DNA of 64,000 nt, from the NCBI GenBank assembly GCA_000092065.1, contig CP000598.1. One strand, 5' to 3'. Under the pieces are notes generated by a model. It saw nothing but the letters and a program-made list of their open reading frames with translations, did no database searches and was not told where the DNA came from. The translations under genes and the position numbers were made by a program. The DNA comes from Ostreococcus lucimarinus. Its lineage: Eukaryota. Position 1 is the stretch's first letter, and each line of letters starts with the position of its first letter. Shown piece after piece: positions 22,125-64,000 of the stretch.

Positions 22125-22161
22125 TAAGATTTCTCCAGAACGAATCGTGTGAGTGAAGTGG

Positions 22162-37382: not shown

Positions 37383-38300
37383 TCAGCAGTTGACAAAAAA
37401 TAGTTTACAAAGATTTCGCGCGCGCTCGATGACTTCCATTTCGTCGTGCGTAGCGGCGAACTCCAATTCAGGCCACGTCACTAGAGGCGCGCGCTTTCCC
37501 GCGTGCGCGTTATGATTCTTTCGTCGTTCGATGGCGCCTTTGAAATCCAAGTCTTCACACCCGATGAAATGAGAACGCGCGCATAACATTTCGAACAGTT
37601 TTGAATCGTTCGCGTCCTCAATTTTGAACCAACATTCCGCCGCTTCGTATCCAAGATTTGTGTATGTCGTCCACCACTCTAAACATTGCACGTCGTGTCG
37701 CAAAGAGTTGAAAACGCTTATGTTGACCTCAAAATCGCGACGAATGTCCTTACCAGCCATTTCAGAGTTGAAATTTGTATCAAATTGCCACTTCGTTCCT
37801 CTGCAGCTGCGTATCACTTGGAGCGGATGTCGAACGATGAGGAAAGTATTCGTGAATACTTCGATTGATCTAATGGGAAATTGTGGTGAACTCGCCAGCC
37901 AGTTTGAGCTTCCGTTCACTCCGAATGTCTCGTGACCTATGTCTACGCCAACATCGCGAAATACTTGAGATACAAAGCCGGTTCCTGAATAGCCGGCTCC
38001 GGTTATGAGAGCTGCGGACGCGATTGCGGATTTGTCGCCCACCCGTACCGGTTTTGAACGACGTCGGAACGACGTCTCGCTGAGAGCATCTTCTGAGAGA
38101 CATTGGTCTAGGCATGCGGCACAAACCGTTTCTGATGCAGTAACAAAGAACGAATCGTTCAAATTAACGTACCCCGTTAGCAATAAGGCGAGAATAGTCG
38201 ACAGAAATCCACCGACCCTGGTAAAGCGCTCTCTGACTTTGACGAGCGAATACTCGTCACGAGTGACTCGAACTTCACACGCCAGCGGCGATTCGATCAT
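37383..38300 (-). CDS. Type II membrane protein, sulfotransferase-like (tentative)
   Basis: ATG verified. Anchor FLSTILALLLTGYV. GAGYSGTGFVSQVF resembles the 5'-PSB loop and IVRHPLQVIRS resembles the 3'-PB motif of sulfotransferases. Confidence 0.4.
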   Translation of the reverse strand: MIESPLACEVRVTRDEYSLVKVRERFTRVGGFLSTILALLLTGYVNLNDSFFVTASETVCAACLDQCLSEDALSETSFRRRSKPVRVGDKSAIASAALITGAGYSGTGFVSQVFRDVGVDIGHETFGVNGSSNWLASSPQFPIRSIEVFTNTFLIVRHPLQVIRSCRGTKWQFDTNFNSEMAGKDIRRDFEVNISVFNSLRHDVQCLEWWTTYTNLGYEAAECWFKIEDANDSKLFEMLCARSHFIGCEDLDFKGAIERRKNHNAHAGKRAPLVTWPELEFAATHDEMEVIERARNLCKLFFVNC

Positions 38301-38818
38301 TTGAGATCACCACACATTGCCATAGCCATAAAATCGTCAGTGAATGACGCACACGAACGGTTCTGTGTGACTTGCACGGCTGCACGGCCCAACAGGGGCG
38401 ACGGTTCGATTGTTTTTACAGCTTCATTTATTACATACGAAAAGAGGCAGCTTTGCGTTGAGGCGACTTGAACCTAAGCTTTTCATCTCCACTAGGCCAC
38501 ACCAATGTTCGCGTCGCAGTAGACGTGCAGGACAGACATTCGAATCGGTGCAACGTCGCGCTGTGAGTGGAAAGAACGACGCGGAGTGGTACGCCTCGAT
38601 GAATCGTCACACTCTGTCTTATGATGCGCGGATTCACGCGCTGTCGGCGTTCATCGCACGAGTTCTGCTCGCACGCAAATGCGAAGGCGTACCAAAAGCT
38701 ATTTCGTGTAGCCCTTTGACAACGACTGGAGGATGGCTGTGCGACCGTTTGGCGCTCGACGCGATTTCCAATTCTGTGTCGATCACCCTAAGTAAATCGT
38801 AATCTTCTTGTGGGAACG

Positions 38819-39928
38819 TCAGGAATACGTGCTGCACAATTCTGTGACTTGTGCTTTTGCAGACGCGTCGTGAAGTGGATTCACCTTTAACCAATGCTTG
38901 CAGCGAGTACAGTAAATGTCGGTTTGGTTGTCGGTTGTTTTGGCGTTCCAATCTCGTTCCAATCTCGCGCCGATGTCCAGTTCTTCTGTATCTGAAATCG
39001 ATTCAACGAAATCTAAGAGTAAATAACATTTGTACCCTTGAAGTCGGATGATTTCCTCCATTAACTCAATCGCTCTGTGAAGACTAAAGCTCGTGCGCTC
39101 GCGATACCACACCGCGGTGTACTCAAAAAACACATTTTTCACCGTTTTCGTTCTGAAGATGCGCATGCCGGACGACAAGACGCTCAGTTCATTACCTTCC
39201 GTATCTATGGCCAATATTTCAACGTCGTCATCATTCAAAGGGATGTCATCGAGCGCGATTGACGACACGATTTTGTGTCCAGCGCCGACGCCTTCGGCGT
39301 GTGTGTGAAACGTGCCAGAGCAAGTGTTGATCGGGGTGTCGATCGCGATCGGCACATCGCTGACGTAGTTGTTATACAACGAAACCCGTCTGACGAACTG
39401 CCGTGGGTACAAGGAAAACGTTTCCTGAATGCCAGAAACACAGAGAGGCAGAGGTTCTACGGCGTACACTCGGTACCCGCTGAGCATGAAAATCACGCAG
39501 AAAAAGCATTCATGCGCTCCGATGTTTATTGTTGCACCTCTACCACGGGACACACTAGAAATCGCATTAGATTTGTATTCGACTGGCGTCGAAGCCAATA
39601 GATTGCGCAGAATTTGTTGAATTTTCAATTCGCCTCCGTTCACTGGTAACCACTCAAACGTGTCTTCCCTCTTCAGCACGATAGGGAGATTTACGTAACC
39701 GTACACTTCAGTTTTTACGTCCGCCTTGTCTTTGACGAGGGTATGCGTGTCTTCGACGCCGTTTAAGGTGATTTCGCTGATGTTGGTGTGGCGAGGCGTG
39801 AAAACGACCTCTTGTTCGGGGCTCGCTGACACGCTGTAGTTGACACCACGTCGGAGCAGCGTAGGAATAATAAAGAGCGAAAGGAGAAGCGTATGTTTCG
39901 CACGCACTGAAACTTGCAGACTCTGCAT
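38819..39928 (-). CDS. FkbM-family methyltransferase (Methyltransf_21-like) with N-terminal anchor
   Basis: ATG verified. INIGAHECFFCVIFMLSGYRVYAVEPLP and ILAIDTEGNELSVL match the FkbM motifs. Confidence 0.7.
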   Translation of the reverse strand: MQSLQVSVRAKHTLLLSLFIIPTLLRRGVNYSVSASPEQEVVFTPRHTNISEITLNGVEDTHTLVKDKADVKTEVYGYVNLPIVLKREDTFEWLPVNGGELKIQQILRNLLASTPVEYKSNAISSVSRGRGATINIGAHECFFCVIFMLSGYRVYAVEPLPLCVSGIQETFSLYPRQFVRRVSLYNNYVSDVPIAIDTPINTCSGTFHTHAEGVGAGHKIVSSIALDDIPLNDDDVEILAIDTEGNELSVLSSGMRIFRTKTVKNVFFEYTAVWYRERTSFSLHRAIELMEEIIRLQGYKCYLLLDFVESISDTEELDIGARLERDWNAKTTDNQTDIYCTRCKHWLKVNPLHDASAKAQVTELCSTYS

Positions 39929-40225: not shown

Positions 40226-41548
40226 CTAACGCTCTCCTGGTAGTATCGTTGCGCGTTGATCTATCGCTTGCCCTGTTGGATCCCAGGAAGGGTATCTCGT
40301 CATATTCGATAAGCGCAACGCCAAGGGCGTGTAAAATTGCTCGGCGTTCTCACCGGCTTTGACGAGCTCGTCGACCCTTCTCATGCGCGCGCCATACGCG
40401 CGTACTGGATCGTTCAAACAAAACAATCGCAATTCTTGCATCGTTTGTTCACAAGTCTTATTTGTACCGCTCTTAATGTTTCCTATGAAGTCATCGAATC
40501 CACCGTATTCCGTCGCCGTCATCATTTTTAGGATATACTGAGGCGGGAAACAATAATTCGTCGCGTGGAATCCTCGACCGAGAACGTGTTCCATGCGCCC
40601 TCGAGGAAGGAGCATTTGGTCGAGGCGATTCGCTACGGTCACACCGGGATCACCGAGCGTCCACGGCATGTTACGCGCCGGAAAGTCGGATCGAAATGCG
40701 AAATTTAGGTTTCCGTACGGAAACCAAATGCCGAAATTACCCGGCAACGCCGTTTCGCAGCGCGCTGCTTTCCAAACGTCTTCCCTCGCCGGTATCTCGT
40801 CCACGTGACCAAAAATAACGAGCGTTTTCTCGTCGTAGCGTTTGGCGAGTTCCCGCGCTATGGCGCTCTCTTTCTCTGCTTCGAATTGGAAATTGACCCC
40901 GTTCGGCGCCGCGGCGCCGGCTTGCGCGTGTTTGAAAATTTCCACCTTGTCGCGAATCGATTCAAACCTCGCCGTCTGTAATAATGATTCAAGCGCGTCA
41001 AAAGTGGCTTCGCCTTTGTGCGTGACGTTCGACGTCACGGCGATAAACTTATCGACGACAGGGTGTAATTCGTACAGACGAATCTCCAACGTATCGACTT
41101 CGCCGCCGCCGAAGAGGAAAACATCCACAATATTCCTAGGTTCGTCTAAAGTTTTGCCAGCGTCGCACTCGAATTGAACGCTTGATGCGGGTTGTAATGC
41201 TATGGAGGAATCGTCATAATCTGTGGGACTCAGAGCCGACGGAAACTGCGCGCGCGTGAGCAGTTCGATCACCCGACGGTGATCGCTCGATATGCGAACC
41301 AACTCTTCACACAGATCACTCGATGGCGCTAACGGTTCATTGAACGCACGAGGCGTGTTCTCATCTGCCGTTTCGCTCACGCTCGCGTCGATCGATTCAC
41401 TCTGGTCACCTACTGTGCCGTTCACCGTGACTCCTGTGATGCGAACCAACTCTCGTGGAAAGTCGAAATCGACGTAGAGGTGCACGTACGCGTAAGTCAG
41501 CGTGACGACGACGAAAGCGACGATCTGAAACGCGCGCAGCTGTCTCAT
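40226..41548 (-). CDS. Glycosyltransferase family 17-like (GnT-III-like) type II membrane protein
   Basis: ATG verified. IVDVFLFGGGEVDTLEIRLYELHPVVDKFIAVTSNVTHKGE and VIFGHVDEIP match GT17 hallmarks. Confidence 0.7.
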   Translation of the reverse strand: MRQLRAFQIVAFVVVTLTYAYVHLYVDFDFPRELVRITGVTVNGTVGDQSESIDASVSETADENTPRAFNEPLAPSSDLCEELVRISSDHRRVIELLTRAQFPSALSPTDYDDSSIALQPASSVQFECDAGKTLDEPRNIVDVFLFGGGEVDTLEIRLYELHPVVDKFIAVTSNVTHKGEATFDALESLLQTARFESIRDKVEIFKHAQAGAAAPNGVNFQFEAEKESAIARELAKRYDEKTLVIFGHVDEIPAREDVWKAARCETALPGNFGIWFPYGNLNFAFRSDFPARNMPWTLGDPGVTVANRLDQMLLPRGRMEHVLGRGFHATNYCFPPQYILKMMTATEYGGFDDFIGNIKSGTNKTCEQTMQELRLFCLNDPVRAYGARMRRVDELVKAGENAEQFYTPLALRLSNMTRYPSWDPTGQAIDQRATILPGER

Positions 41549-41764: not shown

Positions 41765-42787
41765 ATGGCTGAACTATCCACGGGGAAAGTCGAAACCGGC
41801 TTGGTGAGCCCAACGATGGGCGTTCGAACCGCCTCGCTGGCGTCGCGAAAGCATCAAGCGCTGGCGCTTTTCATCTTGACGATCCAAAACACCGCCTTGG
41901 TGCTCGTGACGAAGTTTTCGTATAGAAAATCTGCGACGCCTTACGTCGTGTCCACAGTCATCGCGAGCGCCGAGCTCGTCAAACTCGCTTTGAGCTATAT
42001 TTTGTTGGTCGCGTCCGACGGACAAAGCGCCGCCCGGGACGCGCTCCGCGAGGTGCCGTCCAACGCGACGCGGCTCGCGGTCCCATCCGTGCTGTACGTA
42101 ATACAAAACAACCTCCTTTTCGAGGGCGTGCGGTTGCTGAGCCCGACCGCATACATGGTGTGTTCGCAGAGCAAAATTCTCACGAGCACGATTTGTAGCG
42201 TCTTGCTCCTAGGAACGCGAATCACGCGTAAACAATATGTAGCGTTGTTGGTCCTCGCGTGTGGGATGATCATGGTACAGAACGAAGAAGGACGTGGACG
42301 CGATTTGCCGTCGGATAGAGCGCAGGTGAGACAAACTGTGCGAGGTATGGTCGTCGTGCTCACCGCCGCGTTTACGTCTGGCTTCGCGGGGGCGTATTTA
42401 GAGAAAATGTACAAAGAAGTGGGCGCTCAAAAGCGATCGGTATGGTTCCGCAACGCACAACTGGCGTGCTTTTCACTTCCAGTGGCGTTGATCGGATCAG
42501 TGTGGCGCGATGGAGAGCGCTTGCGCGCGAACGAAAGCGTGTTTCAAGGATACGACGGCGTCGTGTTGCTCGTCATCGCGCTACAAGCCGCCGGTGGTTT
42601 AGTCGTCGCGGCGGTGTTGCGATACGCGGGAAACGTGCTCAAGTGCTTCGCCGTGTCTATTTCTATATGTAATTGCGCCCTCGCGACGACGGTGTTTGCC
42701 AACGACGGACACAACCTGAGCGTTACGGCATCTCTCGGCATAGCGCTCGTCATCGGGTCGACGTTTCTTTATTCAAACGTAGTGTAG
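41765..42787 (+). CDS. Nucleotide-sugar transporter (CMP-sialate/UDP-galactose transporter family)
   Basis: ATG verified. About 10 hydrophobic helices; AVPSVLYVIQNNLLF and the overall layout are typical of the family. Confidence 0.8.
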   Translation: MAELSTGKVETGLVSPTMGVRTASLASRKHQALALFILTIQNTALVLVTKFSYRKSATPYVVSTVIASAELVKLALSYILLVASDGQSAARDALREVPSNATRLAVPSVLYVIQNNLLFEGVRLLSPTAYMVCSQSKILTSTICSVLLLGTRITRKQYVALLVLACGMIMVQNEEGRGRDLPSDRAQVRQTVRGMVVVLTAAFTSGFAGAYLEKMYKEVGAQKRSVWFRNAQLACFSLPVALIGSVWRDGERLRANESVFQGYDGVVLLVIALQAAGGLVVAAVLRYAGNVLKCFAVSISICNCALATTVFANDGHNLSVTASLGIALVIGSTFLYSNVV

Positions 42788-42924: not shown

Positions 42925-43761
42925 TCAGACTGATCGATATTCATCCGTAAATTCGATTTGACTACCGACTAAACTCGATGCTAGAGACCGCCGTGCTACA
43001 TCGCACGGTTCCGTTTGGCAGTAATCGCGTCGAATTGACAAACACGCCGAGTCTTCACATCGAAATATGGTACCTCGATAAACTTCGCCCGCTGCAGTGC
43101 TCAGTTTACCGACTTGGTAACTCGCAGACGCCATCTGTATTCTACACTCCGACCACGACCAACGATCGCCGCATGTATTCTCGCTCGGTGGGTGGGTACT
43201 GATACAATTTTCGTATGCATTTGCCATCGTAGCGAAACTATCCAAGGCTTCTCTCGGTATGATGGTGAACGTGTCCGTCATAAAAGAAACTTCTCGACCT
43301 GATCCAACACTATTCCCGTCCACTTCGTCGCGATAGATCACCATTCCATTGAGAACAAGATTTCTTTTAAGCCCATACCACGTCTCTCCAGGCGGCAGTC
43401 TAGCGTAATATTCTATGTCTGTCCTCGTCAGGATGAAGTGATCGAACTCAACGTCACTTCGATTTCCGTACGCTTGTACGTCTCGCAAACACTCGCGCTG
43501 TCGATAAACTTGGGGATACCCTGCAGAAACGCACCCTACCTCGCCTACGCGCCCGTGTGGTTCCACGTCGTAGACGCGCAGAGATTCTAGCGAGAACCAA
43601 GAACGTAGCTCGGTTTCGACGTCGACGTTCACGCCCTTCTTATCAAGATGTAGAAATACGTGGACTTTTCCGCCGATCAAAAGTGGAGCAAGTACGGCGT
43701 CGTATATATGATCTTGGATATCCTTGCGCACGAGAGTGCGCACCTGACCAACGATGCACAC
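42925..43761 (-). CDS. Hypothetical protein; ORF lacks an in-frame ATG near its 5' end (missing exon or 5'-truncated)
   Basis: The track start is GTG. The frame is open upstream only as KNHGRRGSSHLRVDQPGDRTADDAPKAHAPTFAV after a TGA, and the first in-frame ATG is about 130 codons in. Confidence 0.4.
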   Translation of the reverse strand: MCIVGQVRTLVRKDIQDHIYDAVLAPLLIGGKVHVFLHLDKKGVNVDVETELRSWFSLESLRVYDVEPHGRVGEVGCVSAGYPQVYRQRECLRDVQAYGNRSDVEFDHFILTRTDIEYYARLPPGETWYGLKRNLVLNGMVIYRDEVDGNSVGSGREVSFMTDTFTIIPREALDSFATMANAYENCISTHPPSENTCGDRWSWSECRIQMASASYQVGKLSTAAGEVYRGTIFRCEDSACLSIRRDYCQTEPCDVARRSLASSLVGSQIEFTDEYRSV

Positions 43762-44137: not shown

Positions 44138-45181
44138 ATGGGATCGCGTAAGCAACGCGTCGCCGTTGTCCTGGCGCTCGTTGCCCTCGTCGCTGGAGGT
44201 GGACTAGTGAAACAGCTGGACACGCGCGGGTGTTCGAAAGATACTTCAGCCGCGACGGTAAGTGGCGCTTCGTCATCAGCTCAACCACGCTCGACGGGAG
44301 CTGAATCGCGAGACAATAAACGCGAGACGCCACCTATCGATGCTGTCTCCGCGACGAAGATTGATGATCGAGCTGAAAAGTACGCTATAATCGTCCCTAT
44401 GCACGCCGTCACGCAGCTCGAAGTCATGAAAACCACGTGGAAAATATTTCCACCTTGCGCTGCCGATGCGCGAGCCGCACAAATAATTGATTTGATTTTC
44501 TTATCCGACGTAGACCTCTCGTCGCTCGACGTCACAGGGGGTCACTGCTTTCAGCGAGTGTATCGCCTGCGACCGTTCATCCCGAGCTGCTACAACGTAT
44601 ACGCACAAGCACCACCGTATTGCTTCTTCACGATGATACTTCATCTCGACTTAGACCGTACGTACGACGCCATACTTCAAGTAGAAGCTGATTCCGTGCC
44701 CGTGAAATCCAATTGGTTGGACGCCGCCGTGGAAAACATATTAAAGCCGACATCGGGCGAAGTGTGGATACACGCAGCGAAAAATGAACGCGGTGGAAAC
44801 AATTTCAACGGTAATGGCGCGTACAACTTGCAAAATGACGAATTTCGTCAATTCATAATAGGTTACAGGGAATGGTTTTACACAAAGGCGGTCAACTCTG
44901 GCGACACGGCGTTCGATACAAACATGATTACGTTTGCAAAAGAAGTGGGGTCTTTCGGAAATTTCTCCAACACGCATCTGCGTGCGTCGAAAAGTCTTCG
45001 GAACTGCGATCTCATGTCCCTGACAGCGTGTCGGTCGGCGGTGGATGCGTCCACGTGGGGCGGCGCGACGCCTGAAGCTCTTTTCGTTCACAGTCACGAT
45101 CTGAAAGATCCTTCGCGAGTGAGGAGTCAAATCTTGGTGGAAATGCTTGGTAGAGACGATGGTATACGGCAATTCAAATGA
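44138..45181 (+). CDS. Type II membrane protein of unknown function (glycan-island context)
   Basis: ATG at 44138 gives MGSRKQRVAVVLALVALVAGGGLV (anchor), a Ser/Ala-rich stem, then a globular domain. No family recognised. Confidence 0.5.
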   Translation: MGSRKQRVAVVLALVALVAGGGLVKQLDTRGCSKDTSAATVSGASSSAQPRSTGAESRDNKRETPPIDAVSATKIDDRAEKYAIIVPMHAVTQLEVMKTTWKIFPPCAADARAAQIIDLIFLSDVDLSSLDVTGGHCFQRVYRLRPFIPSCYNVYAQAPPYCFFTMILHLDLDRTYDAILQVEADSVPVKSNWLDAAVENILKPTSGEVWIHAAKNERGGNNFNGNGAYNLQNDEFRQFIIGYREWFYTKAVNSGDTAFDTNMITFAKEVGSFGNFSNTHLRASKSLRNCDLMSLTACRSAVDASTWGGATPEALFVHSHDLKDPSRVRSQILVEMLGRDDGIRQFK

Positions 45182-45697
45182 GTATGCTTGCGACTATTGA
45201 GTTTTCGACATGCTGATGATTTCTTCGTACAGGGCGTCCCACGCCGCCGGAAGCGCTCGCCCGCACTTATCGAGAAGAGTGTACGGACAGCGGACACCCA
45301 TGGCAACATTATTCACGCGTATCGGACGCAGATCTGCATCAAACAAATCTTTATTCAACGCATAACGATTTACTTGCCGCTGCTGCATGGTCACTTCTAA
45401 TTGACCGATGCGTAGGACCTCCTTGAAGTTTGGAGTCTCTGTATGCAAGAACATCGTGTCGCCGCAGTCGCCCAAAACGCCAACTTCCACATAACTCTGC
45501 GCTCTCAAAATCGAGCGGACGTCCTCCTTCGGTCGCGCGATGGTGAAAATGTGAACCTATAAAACCGCGCGTGTGCGTCGTACGACGCCGAAGTGCTAGT
45601 AAATGTTGCCCACTCCGACTGCACCGGTCGTTCTCACGCGTCCATCGACGCCGATACGCGCCGCGTCGCGGTATGCGTTTATCGAAAAAGTCTGAAT

Positions 45698-45976
45698 GAC
45701 CCCCTGAAATTTCAGGGGGTCTATGAGTCACTAGACCCCCTGAAATGTCAGATACTTTCTAGACCGTCTAGAAAGTGTCTGCGAGCTATACCTTATAAAT
45801 TGTGATCAATCGGGCCTAGTGCGTCGATAAGTGATGATGATTACAAGGAGCTATCATTGATTAGTTCATTAATGAGTGTTAACTCGTCAATTAGTCATCC
45901 TAGGTTAACTAGGGGAAGCTATACTTCATATTTTACTCTTCAGATTTCTAACAGTGTCTGACATTTCCAGGGGGTC
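45698..45976. mobile_element. MITE-like element with ~21-bp terminal inverted repeats plus an abutting 24-bp perfect palindrome made of two TIR halves
   Basis: Palindrome gaccccctgaaatttcagggggtc at 45698-45721. Left TIR gaccccctgaaatgtcagata at 45734-45754. Right TIR tgtctgacatttccagggggtc at 45955-45976. GAAT lies on both outer flanks. Internal hairpin at 45749-45781. Confidence 0.6.
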
Positions 45977-46127
45977 GAATCAGTAAGATCCGTGTTCATG
46001 CCTAGAGATTTGAGCGCTCGGTGACAGCGGCAGCTTCCTGAAACGCTCCTCCAGACCCGGACGAGAGCGAGCCGTGAAGCCGTGCGCAAAAGTTCGGCGG
46101 TCGTCGATAGGTCTGGCAACGTCGGTC

Positions 46128-53988: not shown

Positions 53989-54210
53989 AGATAGCTGTCC
54001 TTAGCAAGTGATGACTATGTTATACTTCGAAGGTGTGCGGGACAAAATTCGCGACTGCCCTTGAGCGGCACGGAATGAGTTCAACAAGTGAGGCGCGCTG
54101 GCAGGGCGACGGCGCGCGTATACGTGTCGCGTCTCTTCATTTGCCATCATTTTTTATGTACAGTACAAGGGGGCTAGTAGTACTTTAGTAAAGTAATTGT
54201 ACTAATTGTA

Positions 54211-54254
54211 GTCATGATTGGTCGTTGTGCAGCATTGAGTCATGATTCGTCGTT
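54211..54254 (+). promoter_or_regulatory. Two copies of the motif GTCATGATT(G/C)GTCGTT, also found upstream of genes at 15066 and 18177
   Basis: 54211-54226 and 54239-54254. Related copies at 14820-14835 (gtcatgattggtcgtt) and 17956-17971 (gtcgtgactcgtcgtt). All lie 206-259 bp upstream of an ATG. Confidence 0.4.
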
Positions 54255-54469
54255 TTACCCCTCCCAAACGTTGGCGGTATTTAGCCAGATCCGAATGTAC
54301 ACAGTCAGACGGTCGCTCTTGGGTCATGACTTGTCAAATGGGCTCAAAAACTCGCCCCGGCCGTGATCACCACAATGCCCTGACGCTCACTTTTTCGCTC
54401 AAAACGCTATCCTATGCCAAACGATGCCCGCACAACGGAGGACGCAGTCAAACGACTACAAACACTAGC

Positions 54470-55663
54470 ATGGCGTCCGTAGCGTCCGTTATCGCCGCCA
54501 AGCGCGCTGGCTTCATCGGTATGGGTCGTCTGGGATTGTGTACCGCCCTCAAGTTTGAGCAAGCGGGTTGGGATGTCTGTGGGTCTGACGTCTTTCCGTC
54601 GTACGTTGAAAGTATCAACGACAAGAGTCTTCGAAGCAAAGAGCCCGGAGTCGAAGAGGCTTTGCGAAAGAGCACGCGTTTGCGAGCGACTCTGAATCTC
54701 CTTGATGTCCTAGAGCATGCCGATATCGTTTTCATTCTCGTCGCGACTCCAACCAGCGCGGGCGAAGAGGCCTACGACACGACAACTCTGAGCAGGGTCT
54801 TGAGTGATATCGCTAAATTAAGGCCGACAAACAAACACATCGTGATTTGCTGCACAGTGTTGCCTGGTTACATCTCGAACATCGGTAGTTACCTTATCGA
54901 AAGTTGCACTGGATGTAGTTTGAGTTACAATCCAGAGTTCATCGCCCAGGGTGAGATCATGAAGGGCCTCAGTGAACCCGACGTGGTGCTCATAGGGGAA
55001 GGAAGCGAAGAAGCCGGTGATATTCTACAGTTTTTATACGAGACCGCGACGTCCAATGAGCCTCGGATCTGTCGCATGTCTCCGCAAAGCGCTGAGATAA
55101 TGAAACTAAGCGTAAACTGCTTTGTTACCACGAAGATCAGCTTCGCCAATATGATTGGTGACATTGCTGACGCGACGCCTGGTGCAGACAAATTCGACAT
55201 CCTTAGAGCCGTTGGTCAGGATACACGTGTCGGCCACCGGTGCATCCTTCCAGGTTACGGCTTCGGAGGTCCTTGCTTTCCACGTGATAATAGAGCACTC
55301 GGAATGTACGCACGCAAGGTTGGAATCACTCCTTCAATTTGCGACGCGACGGATGAATACAACCGACTTCACGCGGACGCCATGGTAAAGGCTCTTTTGG
55401 AACAAAAACTAGAGCATTATACCATCAGTGATGTTGCTTACAAGCCACAGTGTCCGGTGGATATTATTGAAGAGTCGCAACCACTCGAAGTGGCCAAGAG
55501 ACTTGTTCAAGCAGGCAAGCGAGTCGTTATACGCGATCGACCCGCCATCATCGAGCTCGTACGCCGCGCTTACGGGCGTATGTTTACCTACGGAGCATAC
55601 AAAGTACCTAACGAAGAACCAAATACTTCTGCTGGCAACCCGTTATCAAGCTACGCGAGGTAA
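54470..55663 (+). CDS. Nucleotide-sugar 6-dehydrogenase (UDP-glucose / UDP-ManNAc dehydrogenase family)
   Basis: ATG at 54470 verified (MASVASVIAAKRAGFIGMGRLG, Rossmann GxGxxG). NPEFIAQG. Catalytic-Cys motif GFGGPCFPRDN. Confidence 0.85.
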   Translation: MASVASVIAAKRAGFIGMGRLGLCTALKFEQAGWDVCGSDVFPSYVESINDKSLRSKEPGVEEALRKSTRLRATLNLLDVLEHADIVFILVATPTSAGEEAYDTTTLSRVLSDIAKLRPTNKHIVICCTVLPGYISNIGSYLIESCTGCSLSYNPEFIAQGEIMKGLSEPDVVLIGEGSEEAGDILQFLYETATSNEPRICRMSPQSAEIMKLSVNCFVTTKISFANMIGDIADATPGADKFDILRAVGQDTRVGHRCILPGYGFGGPCFPRDNRALGMYARKVGITPSICDATDEYNRLHADAMVKALLEQKLEHYTISDVAYKPQCPVDIIEESQPLEVAKRLVQAGKRVVIRDRPAIIELVRRAYGRMFTYGAYKVPNEEPNTSAGNPLSSYAR

Positions 55664-56440
55664 GCTCAACCATGTTCACGTTTCAACGCTGTCACCAACT
55701 CACCGCGTGTCTGATGCGCTGGTGGCCAGATCTTTTGATTTAATATCTATCCATGATATAATCACAGATCTTTCACATCTTAGCCACCGTGCTCGTCGTT
55801 TCCTCGGATCTCGCACGAAGTTGAGATAAATTTCATGTATAAATTACTCACCCTAATATCATACTGCATACACTTTAAGTGCGTCGATAAAGAGCTTTGA
55901 GGTCGTGACAACGGCTGGAATCTACGAACCTGTTTCACGCATCAAAGTCCACCATGCTTTGAACCCTGCGGTTTGTGGCGCGTGATGAGCAAGTAGCAAG
56001 TGCCACCCAAACCTGCGTTCTATGGTGCGCACGAGAGCATCCGGCATAGCCGCGAACCACGGCTCTTTTTTGTATGTGTACGATGTATATGATTTGTATG
56101 TGTATGATTTGTTCGGGCGTTTTTTCCTTCGACTAATTTTGTCATCATCATCGAAACGGAACGTTTAATTCGAGCTCTCCACATTTTAGGGCTAATTTTG
56201 GGAAAAGTGTGACTGTCCATGTATAGACACAACACCAAACTCGATTAAAAAGCTCCTCAAAAAATGTGCGGGAATTGTCTCGAGTGTGTGGCGCTTGCGA
56301 TTGTGGCACGCGTTGAAGCGACTCGCGGTACGGCACGTACGTAGTCTTGAACACGAATATATGTGAATACGATTCACGTTCGAACGCTCTTGGAGTTGCG
56401 CTTCGACATGCTACTGAAAGTAGCTTGCGATTCCGGTACT

Positions 56441-57961
56441 ATGGCTCGCCGAACGGTCATTCTGTTTGCGGTTGTGGCCGTGTTGCTTTGGAGACTGTTC
56501 TTGTTCGATATTGGTGACAGCAGATTTAAAAGTATCACACCACATCCATCACCGGAGCAAAGACGACAACAAAATCACCGAGCAAGATTTTTAGAGCTCA
56601 CACATAACGAAACCTACAAAACCGCAAATGTCGAAGAGAGGAACGATGAACATTTCAAGATGGAACGATATGAAGAATCACCTGCAAGATTACAAGCGTC
56701 AGCTAATTTGGATACACAGAGCACCCGCGTCTTGGTTTTAAGTTGGCATGGTGGTACCGCGAAAGACACAGCGATGCAACTTCATAACGCTGGAGTTCGT
56801 CGCGAAAATATCGTGTGTGGAGGCATTATTTGGTACGAGAAAGTCCTCGATTCTGCTCCTTGCGTAAGAGATCATGCATTATCTGAGGCTTTGAATCGAT
56901 TGACACAGCGTGTAAGAGGTTTTCCCATGGCTATCGATCCAGCAGACGAGAAATGGTTGGATGATTTCGCAGCTGAGGCTAGCGAGATGCTATCTACGTT
57001 CCATGTGCTCTGGGCGGACTTTCCTACCGCCCTTTGTCTTCTATTAAACAAGATTGCCCCACATAAATTGATAGTACGCACAACGCATCGTTTTGATCAC
57101 CAGGTGGCTCATTCGAAGATAAATCACACGTCATTTGTACGTAAAAGCCTCATGCGCGTTCTACGCGAGGCGCCAATACTTCTTGCTGGGAGCGAGTACG
57201 ATCGGGCATACATGAAGTTCTACACATGTCGTGAACCTGAACGTCTATTCATAACATGGCCAACACAGTATTTGGAGAGTTTGGGCGCATCGCGTACACT
57301 TACGAACGAGTCATGCTTCATCTTGTGGGGGGGGTCGAACAACGAAGGTAGTTCAAGCATATCGATTACATTTGATAGAATACGAGTCCTCGGGCGCACT
57401 ATGGAGTCACAAGTTCCCATGAAAAGTCGCCCAACGAGTTTTGCTCACGCTTCGGAATTTGCAACAGAGCAAGCCGTAGTATATTTCCCATACAGTATGC
57501 CGAGTTCCGCATTTCATGAACTTTACGCGAGTGGTGTCCCCCTTTTCGTGCCATCGTTGACTTTCATGCTCGATGAGTTTTCAAAAAACCGTGGCTATCC
57601 TCACAAAGTAGCTGGTAATGTCCCTTGTGCTTCACCATCTTTTTACGAAAACGCTGAGGCAGTGGAGTTCTGCTGTCTTGACGATACTGGGGTATGTCAT
57701 GATCCAAATTCATGCGATCCTGAAGCGCTGAAACAATGGGTATCATTAGGTGACCTTTACACCACCCCGCATGTGACGTATTTCGACAGTGCCGAGCATG
57801 CTGTGGAACTCATGAGCAACTGGATGAAGCATCCAGACCAACGGGATCGAACGATCGAGGACATGGAGTCACACAACGTTGCTAACCTTCGATGGAATGC
57901 TCGTGTCGTTCAAGCCGCAATTCGTCATGTCAAACAAAGCAGCGCGCTTGAACTGGATTGA
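56441..57961 (+). CDS. Type II membrane protein, putative GT-B-fold glycosyltransferase
   Basis: ATG at 56441 (MARRTVILFAVVAVLLWRLFLF). The C-terminal AVVYFPYSMPSSAFHELYASGVPLFVPS resembles the GT1/GT4 E-x7-E region. The assignment is weak. Confidence 0.45.
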   Translation: MARRTVILFAVVAVLLWRLFLFDIGDSRFKSITPHPSPEQRRQQNHRARFLELTHNETYKTANVEERNDEHFKMERYEESPARLQASANLDTQSTRVLVLSWHGGTAKDTAMQLHNAGVRRENIVCGGIIWYEKVLDSAPCVRDHALSEALNRLTQRVRGFPMAIDPADEKWLDDFAAEASEMLSTFHVLWADFPTALCLLLNKIAPHKLIVRTTHRFDHQVAHSKINHTSFVRKSLMRVLREAPILLAGSEYDRAYMKFYTCREPERLFITWPTQYLESLGASRTLTNESCFILWGGSNNEGSSSISITFDRIRVLGRTMESQVPMKSRPTSFAHASEFATEQAVVYFPYSMPSSAFHELYASGVPLFVPSLTFMLDEFSKNRGYPHKVAGNVPCASPSFYENAEAVEFCCLDDTGVCHDPNSCDPEALKQWVSLGDLYTTPHVTYFDSAEHAVELMSNWMKHPDQRDRTIEDMESHNVANLRWNARVVQAAIRHVKQSSALELD

Positions 57962-58094
57962 AAATGCTGGTCGATACAAAGAAGCTGTGGGGGCGATACT
58001 TTGGACATCGTATTCAATATCTTACTTGGCGTACCTCGCCATGTAGAGTCTCACGCCTAGCGTATGTACGCGAAGTGAAAATAGATTTGAGTTT

Positions 58095-58766
58095 TCATTT
58101 AGTGTAACTCGATAGCGGGTTTTCCATGGTGGTGTTCGGGATGGGCGCTACTCCCCCTGCCGTAGTATCGCATATTTCGTAATCGAACAACTGCCCGTAC
58201 GTTCCTCGCACTAAGTGAACAATCGCCACCCGGTCGAAAACTGTCACTTTCTTCCCCCGTCGCACGAGTCGTTTCGCGATTTCGAGCAGCTGGGACTCTT
58301 CGATGATATCCACAGGACAATTCGATTCATATGCGACGTAGGATACCTTACACCTATCGAGATCTAGCCAGGTAACACCGTGCCTCAAATCATCAAGTGT
58401 TTGTTCTCGGGGTTCAAGTCGCTAATATCACTCAAAAAACCGACTGAGCGCGCTTGTGTCGTACGCTTGATCTCCAGAGTCAGTGGGCGTGGCGACGAGG
58501 ATGAAGACCATATCGACGCGATCGATCACTTCACGCAGCTTTAAAGTTGCGCGCAGATGTTTGCTCGATCGAAGCGCTTCCTCGACTCTTGGCTCAGTCA
58601 AACGAAGCGTGATTTCGTTGATGCTGTCCACGTGCGCCGGAAAGACATCCGAACCAACGATATCCCAATCAGCTTGTTCACACTTGAGAGCCGTACATAG
58701 TCCGAGTCGGCCCAGACCGACGAATCTGGCGCGCGTTGTTTGCAAGATCGATCGAGTGGTAGCCAT
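58095..58766 (-). pseudogene. Internally deleted copy of the 54470..55663 dehydrogenase, inverted orientation
   Basis: N-terminal part: MATTRSILQTTRARFVGLGRLGLCTALKCEQADWDIVGSDVFP..ILVATPTDSGDQAYDTSALSR, then a stop. C-terminal part (58095-58388): VAYESNCPVDIIEESQLLEIAKRLV..NPLSSYTK. The central ~240 codons, including the catalytic Cys, are absent. Confidence 0.8.
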
Positions 58767-59010
58767 CTTCGCTCTGCGACGTTGCAACGTCAGAGACGGC
58801 GACTGGCCCAAGATCACTCCACTCTCTTAAAGCATGTCTCTTTCTGGACTTTATTATCCCTGGTACTTTGTTAGGTATATGTCGTAGGAACGCAACCGCG
58901 GACCACAGCCTCGGTGTTGACTCACCACTGCTTTCCTCTGCGTCGAAACTACCGCAACAACGCTCTTGACACGCGCACTAACATTAAGTACACCGGTCGT
59001 GAGCGACGCC

Positions 59011-59600
59011 ATGCGCGAGTCGAATGAGTTCGTGAAAACGTTTTACGATGATCGCCCTTGTAACATTCGGCTCGAAGGAATACTTTGAAGAAGTGACGCG
59101 GCGTAAATATTTCGTCGAGAACCACACTTTGGCATTCGCAAGTCTCGACGCGTACGAAAACAATCTGTTCTCGAGGTTGGTTGCGGTATAGGGACCGCGA
59201 CACAAAGTTTTACTGAAGCTGGCGCGGTTTACACAGGCATCGACGTTTCCTTGCGAAGTGTAGAACTCGCTGAGAAGCGACTCAAACTGTTCAAACTCAA
59301 TGGTGAGGTGCGCGTTGCAGATATACAGACCGATGAATTCATGCACGACCATTTTGATCCTCTTTTTAGTTTCGGAGTTCTGCATCACATCGCCGATGTA
59401 CAACCCGCCGTGAAGGATATTTCATGACTCTCAAACCGGGAGGCGAGTGCAAGCTGATGATGTACGCAAATAATTCTTGGAAAAAAACTTGGAAAAAGAC
59501 TTTCGTCGACTCGGGATTGGACCAATTTGAACCACAATCTGGAGTTCCAATCACTCACACTTACAAAGCCAGTGTCGTGCAATCATCAAGCTCGTTTGTG
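59011..59600 (+). pseudogene. Class I SAM-dependent methyltransferase (type 11-like) with several frameshifts and a truncated 3' end
   Basis: The pieces lie in four frames. In order: MRESNEFVKTFYDDRP; SKEYFEEVTRRKYFVENHTLAFASLDAYENN; SVLEVGCGIGTATQSF..SFGVLHHIADVQPAVKDIS; FMTLKPGGECKLMMYANNSWKK. It runs into the 3' end of the convergent dehydratase gene. Confidence 0.6.
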
Positions 59601-60559
59601 AAATCAAACTCGAGCGATCGTCGTCGACCGTCCGCGCTCGCCGAAGGGTGCGGGCGCAACGCAGGTGAGAATTCGCCCCAGTAGGCGCTCAAGTCGTTAT
59701 TCGAGTACCAACGCACGGTTTCCGCGAGACCGACGTCCCAGGACTTTTCTTGTCGCCATCCGAGCGCTAAAAGCTTTGAGCAATCGATGAAATATCTTCG
59801 GTCGTTGAAGGCTCGATCGCTCACGTGCTCGATGGTCGTTTCCGGGTCGCGATCGAGGAGCTTACAGACATCCCGAGCGACGGACAAGATCGTCCGCTCT
59901 TCGCGCGAGCCGATGTTATAAATCTGCGCCGTCGTCCCGCGGTGGAGAATGACATCGAACGCCGAAGACGCATCGTCAACGTGCATGTACGAACGCGTCG
60001 CGTCGCCGTCGCCGTGTATCGAAATCTTTTCCCCGCGTTTCGCGAGGATTGAAAACTTTGGAATCGCCTTCTCTGGATACTGATTCGGCCCATACACGTT
60101 GTTTCCGCGAGTGATGATGTACGGTAGTCCGTACGAGCGTCCATACGCCATGACGAGCATCTCCGCGCCCGCCTTGGTCGCGGCGTACGGGTTGGTGGGC
60201 GTCAGGAGCGACGCGTGCTCGGTGTTTGAATCCATGAGATTTTCCCCGTATACCTCATCCGTGGACACGTGCAGGAATCGTCGAATTTCGGTCTTCTGCG
60301 CTCGCACGCACGCCTCGAGTAACGCGTGCGTGCCCTCGATGTTATTCTTCGTGAACTCGTACGAGTTCCCGAAAGAGTTGTCCACGTGACTCTGCGCGGC
60401 GAAGTGCATGACGGTGTCGATGCGCTCGCTTTGCAAGACGTAACTCAATAAATCGAACGAACGCACATCGCCCTTGACGAACCGCACGTTCGCGCATTCT
60501 TTCGCGCGCTCGAGATTTTTCAAGCTCGAGCAATAGTCGAGCTTGTCCAGGATGACAAT
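59561..60559 (-). CDS. UDP/dTDP-glucose 4,6-dehydratase (RHM/RfbB-like), exon 2
   Basis: IVILDKLDYCSSLKNL..HFAAQSHVDNSF..VSTDEVYGE..PTNPYAATKAGAEMLV..GDGDATRSYMHVDD. The frame is continuous with the track ORF 59561..60523. Confidence 0.9.
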   Translation of the reverse strand: MVILDKLDYCSSLKNLERAKECANVRFVKGDVRSFDLLSYVLQSERIDTVMHFAAQSHVDNSFGNSYEFTKNNIEGTHALLEACVRAQKTEIRRFLHVSTDEVYGENLMDSNTEHASLLTPTNPYAATKAGAEMLVMAYGRSYGLPYIITRGNNVYGPNQYPEKAIPKFSILAKRGEKISIHGDGDATRSYMHVDDASSAFDVILHRGTTAQIYNIGSREERTILSVARDVCKLLDRDPETTIEHVSDRAFNDRRYFIDCSKLLALGWRQEKSWDVGLAETVRWYSNNDLSAYWGEFSPALRPHPSASADGRRRSLEFDFTNELDDCTTLAL

Positions 60560-60666
60560 CTGTCGAGCGCGACGAGTCGTTCGCGGTCAGTCGTTCGCGC
60601 GAGAGATGGGTGCAAAGTCCGTGCGTTGTTCGACGCACGCGCACGGGGTCGAAATCGTGCGCGCAC
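60560..60666 (-). other. Spliceosomal intron (107 nt, GTGCGC...CAG)
   Basis: Exon 1 ends ..HPEYT at 60667. The donor gt is at 60666-60665 and the acceptor cag at 60562-60560. Splicing gives HPEYT|IVILDKLDYC, the expected contiguous Rossmann-fold sequence. Confidence 0.85.
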
Positions 60667-60750
60667 CGTGTACTCGGGATGCCTCGACGCGAGGCGCTCG
60701 GCGACGTGCGAGCCGATGAAGCCGGCGCCACCGGTGAGAAGGATGCGCAT
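60667..60750 (-). CDS. UDP/dTDP-glucose 4,6-dehydratase, exon 1
   Basis: ATG at 60750; MRILLTGGAGFIGSHVAERLASRHPEYT (GxxGxxG). Confidence 0.85.
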
Positions 60751-61242
60751 GCGGGCGGACGGGCGTCTCGGTCGAGCGCGTCTAGATTTTCGCAGATTAT
60801 CTCGACGACATGCTCGCGAATACCGCGCGCGCCTCGAGGGCGTTCGCGAGTGCTGCGCGCGATGTCCACGCGACGCCGCGCCTTTTGACGCCACTCGCAC
60901 CGGCGCGCAGAAAACGAACGGCGGTTCGGCGGGGCGCGAAAGTGATTACTCCTTCGGGGGTAACCTAGGCGAGCTTCCCGTATTCATGTACAAATTACTC
61001 ACCCATATATCATACCTGGTATTGATCCGACACGCGTCAGAGATAACGGGGAGAATAAAACCACAGAAATTCATGTACACGCGGCACTTCGACAAAGTCT
61101 TTCGATCGTTAAAGCACTGGTGACCCCTCTACCCTCCACGTTCTGTCAGAGGCTAGTTCTGTGAGTCTCTCAGTCTGTATTCTTTTACACCGAAGGTCGC
61201 TCCGAGGACGAAACTATCTTGTGTTTATTTTTGGATCTGGTC

Positions 61243-61825
61243 TACTGCATACACTTTAAGTGCGCCGATAAAGAGCTTTGACTTCGTGACAACGGCTGTC
61301 ATCTACGAACCTGTTTCACGCATCAAAGTCCACCATGCTTTGAATCCTGTGGCTTGTGGCACGTGATGAGCAAGTGCCACCCGAACCTGCGTTCTATGGT
61401 GCGCACGAGAGCGTCCGCACGAGAGCATCCGGCATGGCCGCGAACCACGGCTCTTTTCTGGATGAAGCATCCAGACCAACGGGATCGAACGATCGAGGAC
61501 ATGGAGTCACACAACGTCGCTAACCTTCGATGGAATGTTCGTGTCGTTCAAGCCGCAATTCGTCACGTCAAACAAAGCAGCGCGCTTGAACTGGATTGAA
61601 AATGCTGGTCGATACAAAGAAGCTGTGGGGACGATACTTTGGACATCGTATTCAATATCTTACTTAGCGTACCTCGCCGTGTAGAGTCTCACGCCTAGCG
61701 TACGTACGCGAAGTGAAAATAGATTTGAGTTTTCATTTAGTGTAACTCGATAGCGGGTTTCCCATGGTGGTGTTCGGGATGGGCGCTACTCCCCCTGCCG
61801 TAGCATCGCATATTTCGTAATCGAA
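61243..61825 (+). pseudogene. Deletion derivative of 55866-58187: upstream region joined directly to the last 45 codons of the 56441..57961 gene plus its 3' flank
   Basis: 61243-61458 matches 55866-56066. 61459-61825 matches 57823-58187 (MKHPDQRDRTIEDMESHNVANLRWN.RVVQAAIRH VKQSSALELD). About 1.75 kb is missing at the junction ggctcttttc|tggatgaag. Confidence 0.85.
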
Positions 61826-61847
61826 AAGTTAACGTGCCCATCGAGTA

Positions 61848-61929
61848 CTAATCAATGATAGCTACTTGTAATCATCATCACTTATTGACGCAGGCCCGAT
61901 TGATCGCATAGTATTAGGTATAGCTCGCA
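61848..61929 (-). mobile_element. Fragment of the 45734-45976 element, inverted orientation
   Basis: ctaatcaatgatagct.cttgtaatcatcatcacttat.gacgca..ggcccgattgatc.ca is the reverse complement of 45781-45864, with a few changes. Confidence 0.7.
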
Positions 61930-62006
61930 TTTCGAAAATAATGTATGAGGGTAAAATAATGAATTTAATTAACGTCGACGTTTGTCGCGCCGTCGCGCGC
62001 CACTTC

Positions 62007-62240
62007 GCGCCGCGCGCGCGTCCGGGCGGCGCGGAGTCAACCGATGTTTCCGCGTATCGTGATATCCGACCGTTTAAGTTTGAATTCTGTGCGTGGGTGT
62101 TGACGGAACACGACCGTTGGAGCTCGATGGGCACGTTAACTTTTGGGCCAGATTCTGTCGCGTATGACGCACCCTCGCGCGCGCCGAAGCGCGTCTCCGA
62201 CCGTGTCGACGGCACGGAAAGGTTGTAAGAAGGCTTCTCA
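62007..62240. repeat. Repeat Y, copy 2
   Basis: See 19507-19740. Confidence 0.75.
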
Positions 62241-62812
62241 GCGATCTTCAGCCTCGCTGGGAGGAGCAGAGGCAACGACGGCTCCCGCTTGCGACGACGA
62301 AGACTGGCGCGCTCAAGTGGCCAAAGATGCTCGTGAGGTTGCCGTTTCTTTGCTCGCGAACAAACGTCGCCGGGAGGTTTCTGTTTCTGATACTATACTA
62401 TACTTAGGGCTAGCTCATTCAGGCGATGTGAAACGTCCGTGACGACGCGCTCATACGTAAATTCTTGCATGAATGCGCGAGCATTTGCTGTGATTTCACG
62501 CAACCTCGTTAGCGATTCGCCATCGGTGTTCGCCACAATCTTCGTTTTCTCAGCCAAATCGTGCAAATCTTCGGATATTCCGATGAAGTGTATCACATCT
62601 ACTAGCTTGTCGCTGTAAGTGATCGATTTCTAAAAAAGTTGCACGAGGTAAAAACACCCCGGCGGAGTCCTCACCCTTTACCCATACTCTTGAGTCATGA
62701 ACGGCCAAAACCGAGCTAAATTTAGCGAAGCCCGGGCGAACCACGATTCATTCCTCCGTGAAGGACGTCCGCGTGCCCGAAGATTCCGACGCCAGCATAC
62801 ATCGCGGAGTTG

Positions 62813-64000
62813 ATGGGACGGTTAAAAAGTATCCTCGTCCTCGATCGCCGAAGAGCGAGAACTCTGATCTCGTTAGTCTCGTTAGTCTCGCTAGTCTCGT
62901 TGTGTTTCGCCGCCCTGCTATCGGTGAACAAACATGCCGGTTGGCCGCGAAAAGGCGATCCTCCCACGCCCTCGTTGGACTCGATGAAAGATATCGAGTC
63001 AGAACGTTTCGACAGAACGGCCTATTCTGCTGAAATCAAAATCGCGATTGTCTTCGGTACGCGACCAGAGGCTGTGAAAATGGCTCCGGTGATTCAAGCG
63101 GTGGCCAGATCGTCGACTCTGAGTGCGATACTGATCTCCACGGGTCAACACAAACAGATGCTTGAGCAAGTTCTGCGCCAGTTCAGCTTGCAAGATAAAA
63201 TTCAACACGAGCTAGCGCTGATGAAGCCAAATCAACAGCTCGCAGAGCTCACATCGAGCGCGGTGCGCGCGGTAGACGGCGTGCTACGTTCGTCAAAACC
63301 AGACGCGGTGCTCGTGCAGGGCGATACAACGACAGCGTTTATCACGTCTTTGGCGGCGTTTTACTTGAAAATACCAGTTGGACACATCGAAGCGGGTCTT
63401 CGTACGCGTGATATCTACTCACCCTTTCCCGAAGAAGTCAATAGACAGTGTATCTCAGTTATGGCGACGTATCACTTCGCACCCACCGAACACGCGGCAA
63501 AAAATCTGTACGACGAGGGTAGACGCACGAATGTGTTTACAACCGGTAACACTGTTGTCGATGCCCTATATGCAATTTTAAAGACTGAACCGAGTGATCG
63601 AGTGATTGAGCTATCCAAAGTCGTGAAGACTGTATCCACTCTGCGCGACGTGAGGCTGTTACTTCTCACCGCTCATCGACGTGAAAACCTTGGCGAACCC
63701 ATACTCAACATCTTCACAAGCATAGAGAAGCTTCTGCAAGAATACCCTGACGTCGTCGTGATTTATCCCATTCACTTGAACCCTATGGTGAAGCACTTAG
63801 CAGAACAGCACTTCGGCGTTGATACATTCCACAGCCTTGTACAGTCGGACCACGCGCCGCCAACGACTACGCACTTACGGCGATTGCTGATAGTACCACC
63901 TCTAGACCATGCAGATTTATTATTCATGATGAAAGAGAGTTTTTTCGTCATGACAGATTCGGGAGGTATCCAAGAGGAAGCGGTCACTCTAGGAAAACCG
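62813..64000 (+). CDS. UDP-N-acetylglucosamine 2-epimerase (WecB/MnaA family), partial; runs off the window end
   Basis: The frame is open from 62762 to the window end (not in the track because there is no stop). ATG at 62813 gives the anchor ISLVSLVSLVSLLCFAALLSV; an alternative ATG is at 62984. KIAIVFGTRPEAVKMAPV, VQGDTTTAF, GHIEAGLRT, FPEE, LLTAHRREN, TDSGGIQEEA. Confidence 0.85.
   Translation, partial: MGRLKSILVLDRRRARTLISLVSLVSLVSLCFAALLSVNKHAGWPRKGDPPTPSLDSMKDIESERFDRTAYSAEIKIAIVFGTRPEAVKMAPVIQAVARSSTLSAILISTGQHKQMLEQVLRQFSLQDKIQHELALMKPNQQLAELTSSAVRAVDGVLRSSKPDAVLVQGDTTTAFITSLAAFYLKIPVGHIEAGLRTRDIYSPFPEEVNRQCISVMATYHFAPTEHAAKNLYDEGRRTNVFTTGNTVVDALYAILKTEPSDRVIELSKVVKTVSTLRDVRLLLLTAHRRENLGEPILNIFTSIEKLLQEYPDVVVIYPIHLNPMVKHLAEQHFGVDTFHSLVQSDHAPPTTTHLRRLLIVPPLDHADLLFMMKESFFVMTDSGGIQEEAVTLGKP

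Follow-up and report, generated by a model that had tools for sequence, protein, structure and literature searches.

Glycan-related genes and a relocating 6.7-kb block on the small outlier chromosome of Ostreococcus lucimarinus

The low-GC island of chromosome 18

The 64,000-nucleotide stretch of DNA analysed here (the window) belongs to chromosome 18 of Ostreococcus lucimarinus CCE9901; the protein XP_001422304.1, from the 149,386-bp record, is 100% identical to window positions 50099-50977. Chromosome 18 is the small outlier chromosome (SOC) of this species, and its low-GC part in the window, from 37383 to 64000 (26 kb, hereafter the island), very probably encodes a secretory-pathway glycan toolkit that is reshuffled between strains. 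Fourteen intact-looking open reading frames (ORFs) were found in the island, along with the remnants of three genes and a number of fragments of repeats or transposons. Ten of the ORFs have a glycan-related family or fold and the other four are of unknown family. Beyond what the annotation records, a 6.7-kb block of the island varies in location from one wild strain to another.

Neither the locus nor its interpretation is new. The O. lucimarinus SOC has been described as a chromosome of 149 kb and 53% GC with 16 sugar-metabolism and 5 methylation genes (Moreau 2012), and a tally of its genes lists 11 methyltransferases, 8 glycosyltransferases (GTs), 6 NAD epimerase/dehydratases and 4 sugar transporters (Yau 2016, Table 1). 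Both the enrichment in sugar and methyltransferase genes and the hypothesis of a role of the SOC in virus resistance were published earlier (Moreau 2012; Yau 2016). A preliminary description of the window, made from its sequence alone, had likened the island to the Ostreococcus SOC. The window is in fact that chromosome in CCE9901, and the description re-derived the published interpretation of chromosome 18 itself. Its statement that the pathway is undescribed is true in the biochemical sense, as characterisation of these enzymes was not found in the literature searched; nor did that literature describe the per-gene assignments, the 755-amino-acid (aa) fusion ORF or the five contexts of the block reported below.

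The window thus lies on one of the Mamiellales SOCs (O. lucimarinus chromosome 18, O. tauri chromosome 19, Bathycoccus chromosome 19 and Micromonas chromosomes 17 and 19), a class defined by smallest size and atypical composition, and does not differ from them in any categorical way. It shares with them a low GC content, many orphan genes, an enrichment in GT, nucleotide-sugar, transporter and methyltransferase genes, duplications, transposon-related sequence and rearrangement between strains. Its GC content of 53.4% (0.534) agrees with the published 53% of chromosome 18, and that of the island is 0.499, compared to a published value of more than 59% genome-wide; the adjacent upstream region (26-37.4 kb) stands at 0.612. 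Structural hypervariability is apparent from the contexts of the block, from an insertion/deletion at 52460 and from a breakpoint at 42786, while the region from 34 to 42.8 kb is collinear between strains.

Transporters, nucleotide-sugar enzymes and transferases of the island

Gene families were assigned by profile searches with the curated Pfam and NCBIfam cutoffs, and solved structures were compared by PDB sequence searches. All ORFs of the preliminary description were present at the positions given there, and most of its motif-based calls were upheld by the profiles (the two FkbM methyltransferases, the GT17-like protein, the transporter, the STELLO domain, the short-chain dehydrogenase/reductase (SDR), the dehydrogenase, the dehydratase and the epimerase). 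The gene at 54470-55663 (plus strand) codes for a nucleotide-sugar 6-dehydrogenase of bacterial/archaeal type (TIGR03026, 222 bits for a cutoff of 189.8), which the profiles place in the UDP-glucose/GDP-mannose dehydrogenase family. Its ORF reaches upstream to 54242 and carries the catalytic GGPCFPRD motif at residue 342, counted from 54242; the nearest solved structure is an archaeal UDP-glucose dehydrogenase (PDB 3vtf, 2.5e-43). An extended SDR is encoded at 52744-53988 (minus strand), with an anchor at aa 10-31 (GDP_Man_Dehyd, E 8.9e-63), and its closest solved structure is a GDP-6-deoxy-D-lyxo-4-hexulose reductase (RMD; PDB 2pk3, 3e-54). At the right end, a gene starting at 62813 (plus strand) and running past the window end at 64000 encodes a WecB-type non-hydrolysing UDP-GlcNAc 2-epimerase with an anchor at aa 18-36, which reaches 333 bits on the TIGR00236 equivalog model (cutoff 210) despite being cut by the window end and also matches Epimerase_2 (4.6e-82).

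The 4,6-dehydratase gene (59561-60750, minus strand) had been described as an intact gene, and its family was upheld. Its coding sequence is apparently divided over two frames. On the minus strand, 28 codons (exon 1, 60750-60667) start with the ATG at 60750; a GT stands at 60666 and an AG at 60561-60560, after which a long ORF continues in frame (exon 2, 60559-59561). The spliced 360-aa protein matches TIGR01181 end to end and PDB 6vlo at 8e-87, and both the STDEVYG and the YxxxK motifs are present. A frameshifted gene was considered and rejected, as the predicted 107-nt GT..AG intron restores the end-to-end profile alignment. Because of this alignment and the match to 6vlo, we take the gene to be intact with one predicted intron, and it is intact only if positions 60560-60666 are spliced out. 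By its family the predicted protein is a UDP/dTDP-glucose 4,6-dehydratase, and its TIGR01181 score of 348.1 bits, below the equivalog cutoff of 365.1, leaves the choice between UDP and dTDP undecided.

Two FkbM methyltransferases are encoded on the minus strand. The first, at 38819-39928, scores above both the Methyltransf_21 cutoff (E 8.5e-17, 62.2 bits versus 22.7) and that of TIGR01444 (45.7 bits versus 37.7). The second, at 48373-49581, has a hydrophobic segment at aa 88-106 and passes Methyltransf_21 (PF05050; E 7e-9, 36.5 bits versus 22.7), and its 26.9 bits on TIGR01444 fall under the cutoff of 37.7. The protein encoded at 40226-41548 (minus strand, N-terminal anchor at aa 4-26) matches Glyco_transf_17 (PF04724, E 8.8e-14) at 51.8 bits for a cutoff of 26, yet the aligned part covers only profile positions 67-197 of 348, and 'GT17-like' is the appropriate label. 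The adjacent gene at 41765-42787 (plus strand) encodes an SLC35A-type nucleotide-sugar transporter, matched over its full length by Nuc_sug_transp (E 3.9e-71).

The second transporter is part of a 755-aa fusion protein (50099-52366, plus strand). Its N-terminal half, a TPT/EamA-type sugar transporter of about ten helices (EamA, 1.2e-8), weakly matches the yeast GDP-mannose transporter Vrg4 (PDB search, 0.12). It is followed by an extra helix at aa 323-339, predicted by hydropathy, and by a STELLO-like GT domain (PF03385, 5e-20). The STELLO match of 72 bits, for a cutoff of 27.8, spans profile positions 1-111 of 387 (residues 674-784 of the ORF counted from 49997), and residues 450-685 of the 755-aa protein match the family of PDB 7xpu at 1.5e-10. 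The extra helix would put the GT domain across the membrane from the transporter C-terminus. The ORF, which the preliminary description listed as a transporter-STELLO fusion, is uninterrupted from the ATG at 50099, and since relatives at 47-80% identity have the same full length, the predicted fusion is regarded as real and conserved. The NCBI model (XP_001422304.1/ABP00621.1, 'DMT family transporter: GDP-mannose, partial') spans only the first 293 aa, apparently a mistake in the annotation of the reference genome. The O. tauri SOC also carries an FkbM gene and a transporter-GT92 fusion (Yau 2016). This O. tauri protein, ostta19g00600, which joins a triose-phosphate-transporter (TPT) domain to GT92, and a transporter-GT37 protein of another prasinophyte, Pseudoscourfieldia marina, share the design of an N-terminal transporter fused to a GT; unlike both, the O. 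lucimarinus protein has a STELLO-like GT domain and a helix predicted between its halves.

Two observations were made on either side of this gene. An insertion/deletion polymorphism of about 200 nt lies just 3' of it, at 52460, and is seen in three independent contigs (L003, L004 and L010). Upstream, between the second FkbM gene and the fusion gene, five independent Logan contigs end exactly at 49700, which suggests a junction or repeat at the population level at about this position, though contigs L001 and L010 cross it collinearly.

An anchored GT of a family that lacks a Pfam model is encoded at 56408-57961 (plus strand). A family profile gave no match among PDB sequences, and only a fold search succeeded: two Rossmann-like domains are superposable on solved GT-B enzymes (GT4-like), in agreement with the GT-B-like call made from the sequence.

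The four ORFs of unknown family include two for which the motif-based names could not be confirmed. The 305-aa protein encoded at 37383-38300 (minus strand) has a hydrophobic anchor at aa 29-47 and had been called sulfotransferase-like. It is lineage-restricted, with only 4 homologues among 5.8e9 proteins. Searches of Pfam and NCBIfam (E<=10) and of PDB sequences were empty, as was a Pfam scan of three of the homologues, and an AlphaFold2 (AF2) model built from the 4-sequence alignment was unusable (pLDDT 32.7). Among the invariant motifs (TGxGYSGTG and VRHPLxVxxSCRG), only GYSGTG and VRHPLQVIRS resemble sulfotransferase motifs and the usual 5'-phosphosulfate-binding (5'-PSB) Lys/Arg is absent; the sulfation that had been proposed for the glycan had only these two short motifs behind it. 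The protein encoded at 46128-47060 (plus strand), named fucosyltransferase-like, is anchored and has GT11-like motifs by eye (DGFGSQFQN, HIRRQ, SSFSYAAALL), the first of them doubled by an in-frame 90-nt tandem duplication (46205-46380). No Pfam match, to GT11 (PF01531) or otherwise, was found at E<=10, with or without the duplication, and the PDB search gave no support; a BLASTP comparison with Helicobacter pylori FutC gave an E value of 0.052. The other two had been listed as anchored proteins of unknown family. This holds for the 347-aa protein at 44138-45181 (plus strand), which has a hydrophobic segment at aa 22-40 of a longer ORF starting at 44096 and for which no Pfam match was found. 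It does not hold for ORF 42925-43761 (minus strand), in which neither an ATG before residue 140 nor, by hydropathy scan, a hydrophobic segment was found. An upstream exon with an ATG was looked for and no convincing candidate was found; this ORF is possibly 5'-truncated or has an undetected exon.

The claim that nearly every product bears an N-terminal membrane anchor was overstated. A 19-residue Kyte-Doolittle scan of the 12 non-transporter proteins found such anchors in eight, including the WecB-type epimerase and the RMD-like SDR, and none in the dehydrogenase, the 4,6-dehydratase, ORF 42925 or FkbM 38819. The lumenal pathway that had been deduced from the anchors is plausible as far as the enzymes are anchored, which the dehydrogenase and the 4,6-dehydratase are not. 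In the working that we propose, these two soluble enzymes would activate or modify nucleotide sugars in the cytosol, by oxidation and by 4,6-dehydration, and the two transporters, one of SLC35A type and one of TPT type fused to a GT, would import the sugars. The anchored WecB enzyme would convert UDP-GlcNAc into UDP-ManNAc, and the anchored RMD-like 4-reductase would turn a 4-keto-6-deoxy sugar into a 6-deoxyhexose. Anchored GT17-like, STELLO-like and GT-B transferases would attach the sugars to acceptors, and the FkbM methyltransferases would probably O-methylate the product.

Several of these families point towards bacteria. The WecB-type epimerase scores above the bacterial equivalog cutoff, the dehydrogenase is nearer to archaeal and bacterial enzymes than to eukaryotic UGDH, both the RMD-like reductase and the GT-B fold have bacterial proteins as their nearest relatives of solved structure, FkbM genes are typical of bacterial clusters, and SOCs are reported to be enriched in candidates for horizontal gene transfer (Moreau 2012). 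The same enzyme families (WecB, NDP-sugar dehydrogenase, RmlB-type dehydratase, Rmd and GT4) are clustered in bacterial O-antigen, capsule and enterobacterial-common-antigen loci, which also show cassette-like presence or absence between strains. The island might thus be a bacterial-type polysaccharide gene set (O-antigen- or capsule-like) that was acquired horizontally and then adapted to its eukaryotic host, a possibility that we regard as somewhat doubtful. The SLC35A transporter, the GT17 and STELLO domains, the type-II anchors and the predicted spliceosomal-type intron are eukaryotic features, and transporter-GT fusions occur in other prasinophytes as well. Unlike the bacterial clusters, the island lies in a eukaryotic genome and has Golgi-type transporters, and Wzx/Wzy/ABC export and an undecaprenyl-phosphate priming enzyme are absent from the window. 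This alternative concerns the origin of the genes and is compatible with a secretory-pathway glycan toolkit.

Rearrangement between strains

The window was compared with environmental contigs and contigs of other assemblies that are 97.7-100% identical to it. A block of 6.7 kb (54198-60931), which contains the dehydrogenase, the GT-B gene, two pseudogenes and the 4,6-dehydratase, was found at 99% identity behind five distinct upstream sequences, all of which join it at the same sharp left end, TAATT/GTAGTCATGATTGG. The upstream context of the window (A) was found again in contigs L001 and L015, context B in L011 and L012, and context C in L013, L016 and L042. Context D was found in L014, with a DDE transposase upstream, and context E in L043. 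Contexts B and C are not chimeras, because each was seen in at least two independent assemblies. The block can also be absent from the reference site: contig L010 is collinear with the window from 44357 to 54166 and then jumps to 61929, without positions 54167-61928 and thus without the dehydrogenase, the GT-B gene, both pseudogenes, the dehydratase and a GT remnant, and continues into a pogo/Tc5-type DDE transposase. Since the NCBI assembly to which L010 belongs also includes L042, where the block stands in a different context, the block has moved in this assembly and has not been lost. The stretch from the second FkbM gene to the dehydrogenase is collinear in L001. The left part of the region (34-42.8 kb), with a DNA methyltransferase gene, ORF 37383, the first FkbM gene, the GT17-like gene and the SLC35A-type transporter, is collinear in ten contigs, and L035 diverges from the window directly after the transporter stop (42786). 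The variation is therefore one of block rearrangement and not of rapid sequence change, and 'fast-evolving', as the island had been called, applies to its structure but not to its sequence.

The three decayed copies that had been noticed in the island are real. The dehydrogenase pseudogene (58098-58766, minus strand) is 50-57% identical to the intact copy over residues 77-212 and 390-473 and lacks residues ~213-389, the central domain with the catalytic Cys. A class I S-adenosylmethionine (SAM)-methyltransferase pseudogene at 59017-59568 (plus strand; Methyltransf_12/11/25, E 3e-14 to 1e-13) has 5 in-frame stops. As no intact paralogue of it was found within the window, it does not count as a decayed copy of an island gene, contrary to what had been thought of all three. 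The third remnant, at 61243-61825 (plus strand), is a deletion derivative, a copy of 55862-58187 minus 56077-57819 that keeps only the flanks of the GT-B gene (55862-56076 and 57820-58187, at 85% and 97.6% identity).

Mobile-element sequences lie close to the breakpoints. A 226-bp element resembling a miniature inverted-repeat transposable element (MITE), with the 14-nt terminal inverted repeats GAAATGTCAGAYAC, occupies 45742-45967. A partial inverted copy of it is present at 61847-61929 and another copy lies 3' of the block in L011 (9763-9937 of that contig), so that partial MITE-like copies adjoin the right-hand rearrangement junctions. The 5' remnant of a pogo/Tc5-type DDE transposon follows at 61929-62406 (plus strand), with 87 residues of transposase coding sequence (62164-62406), and a full-length copy is found at the equivalent position in L010. 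Pogo/Tc5-type DDE transposase genes are present in L010 (10306-11862) and L014 (3-1727), and a further truncated 5' transposase remnant of this type lies at 19665-19763 of the window. We tentatively suggest that the block may be a discrete mobile glycan cassette with a nucleotide-precise left end that has come to lie in five or more contexts of the SOC in wild O. lucimarinus populations, possibly via the adjacent pogo/Tc5-type DDE transposons. If so, it would be a eukaryotic counterpart of the cassette exchange of bacterial O-antigen loci and would offer virus-driven selection a definite unit to act upon.

The toolkit is very probably reshuffled between strains through transposon activity, duplications, deletions and the rearrangement of blocks, and this, by analogy with O. 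tauri chromosome 19, would be expected to alter the surface glycans that prasinoviruses meet. The same variation could also be neutral turnover on a gene-poor, transposon-rich chromosome under low constraint, with the genes making a housekeeping secreted or surface polysaccharide or glycoprotein and having no part in virus defence. Such turnover would fit the pseudogenes and the deletion derivative, which are tolerated and common to strains at 99% identity, the transposase genes, transposase remnants and MITE-like element at the junctions, and the absence of the whole block from the reference site in one contig. On the other hand, the block is intact at 99% identity in five contexts, which suggests retention and not decay. 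In O. tauri, SOC glycosyltransferases are specifically over-expressed in virus-resistant lines, in which the SOC is rearranged (Yau 2016), the SOC is hypervariable in populations (Blanc-Mathieu 2017), and its size correlates with resistance (Yau 2016; Blanc-Mathieu 2017). We therefore consider purely neutral turnover rather unlikely. It is highly improbable that the island is virus-derived, through gene exchange with prasinoviruses. Such viruses, too, have 4,6-dehydratase, GT and FkbM-type genes, and OtV5 codes for several GTs besides dTDP-glucose and GDP-mannose 4,6-dehydratases (Yau 2016). Against this origin stand the predicted intron and the host-type anchors, and IMG/VR scans with the GT-B protein and the 4,6-dehydratase, by a method that detects close relatives only, found no relative.

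Some observations weigh against a reshuffled glycan toolkit. The collinearity of the left 8 kb in ten contigs and the low divergence (97.7-100% identity) indicate that the island as a whole is not hypervariable, and some of the environmental contigs could in principle come from sibling lineages and not from strains of one species. Five of the 14 ORFs lack a profile-supported family. As for substrates, no NCBIfam equivalog match was found for the RMD-like SDR, and the only model whose cutoff the dehydrogenase clears is the generic subfamily one for nucleotide-sugar dehydrogenases (TIGR03026); it falls far under the NCBIfam equivalog cutoffs (156 versus 670 for AglM and 57-88 versus 459-750 for WecC).

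Other features of the window and relation to known systems

To the left of the island, an 11-kb block (26001-37382) has a 'standard' GC content (0.61) within the outlier chromosome. It encodes a BCCT transporter, a Myb protein and a C5 DNA methyltransferase with CXXC and Tudor domains, and the closest non-identical BCCT protein (86%) comes from a housekeeping region of an 839-kb contig. This hints at translocation of the block from a standard chromosome. Further left, a 4.2-kb direct repeat (10191-14406 and 22125-26353) is 98.8% identical between its copies, each of which carries an ORF of 841 or 843 aa with an N-terminal anchor and a Pro/Thr/Ser-rich stalk and without a Pfam or PDB match. The possibility that these ORFs (11747 and 23689) encode a transposase was rejected in view of the anchor and the stalk, homology being undetected, and the repeat has the look of a surface-protein gene that was duplicated recently, rather than of a transposon. 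Another large ORF, of 2607 aa (1545-9368, plus strand), is built of DUF285 (BspA-like) repeats, and its DNA has repeats with a period of 75 nt. This ORF is paralogous to ORF 20822-21832 (31% identity) and is similar to the 'cell surface repeat' class that has been reported for the SOC of O. tauri.

Smaller repeats were also noted in this part. A perfect-centre palindrome at 14663-14782 consists of two 60-nt arms that are 88% complementary, with no spacer. An element of 69-130 nt that ends in the telomere-repeat-like CTAGGGTTTAGC is repeated at 1236-1304, 14938-15006, 18046-18114 and 19795-19863, just 5' of several ORFs, the paralogues 15066 and 18177 among them; it may serve as a common promoter or as a recombination element. 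Within an armadillo-repeat ORF (19893-20825), a 132-nt tandem repeat is present in five copies that are up to 95% identical (20053-20844).

Outside the eukaryotes, the hypervariable genomic islands of Prochlorococcus that have been linked to phage resistance are also low in GC, variable between strains and rich in sugar-modifying enzymes and methyltransferases, an analogy drawn by Moreau (2012); the organism and the mechanism differ and the likeness is one of resemblance only. The window adds nothing categorical to what is known of SOCs. It does yield a cleaner gene list for chromosome 18, with the transporter-STELLO ORF, the anchored WecB and RMD-like enzymes and a GT-B family without a Pfam model. 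The interest that remains lies in the uncharacterised chemistry and in the relocating 6.7-kb block; work on glycan chemistry and tests of virus host range can start from the gene list and from this sharply bounded block. The SOC itself is one of the rare eukaryotic chromosomes that are specialised as a whole for surface-glycan variation, and it is the leading candidate for the means by which the smallest free-living eukaryotes evade very abundant giant viruses.

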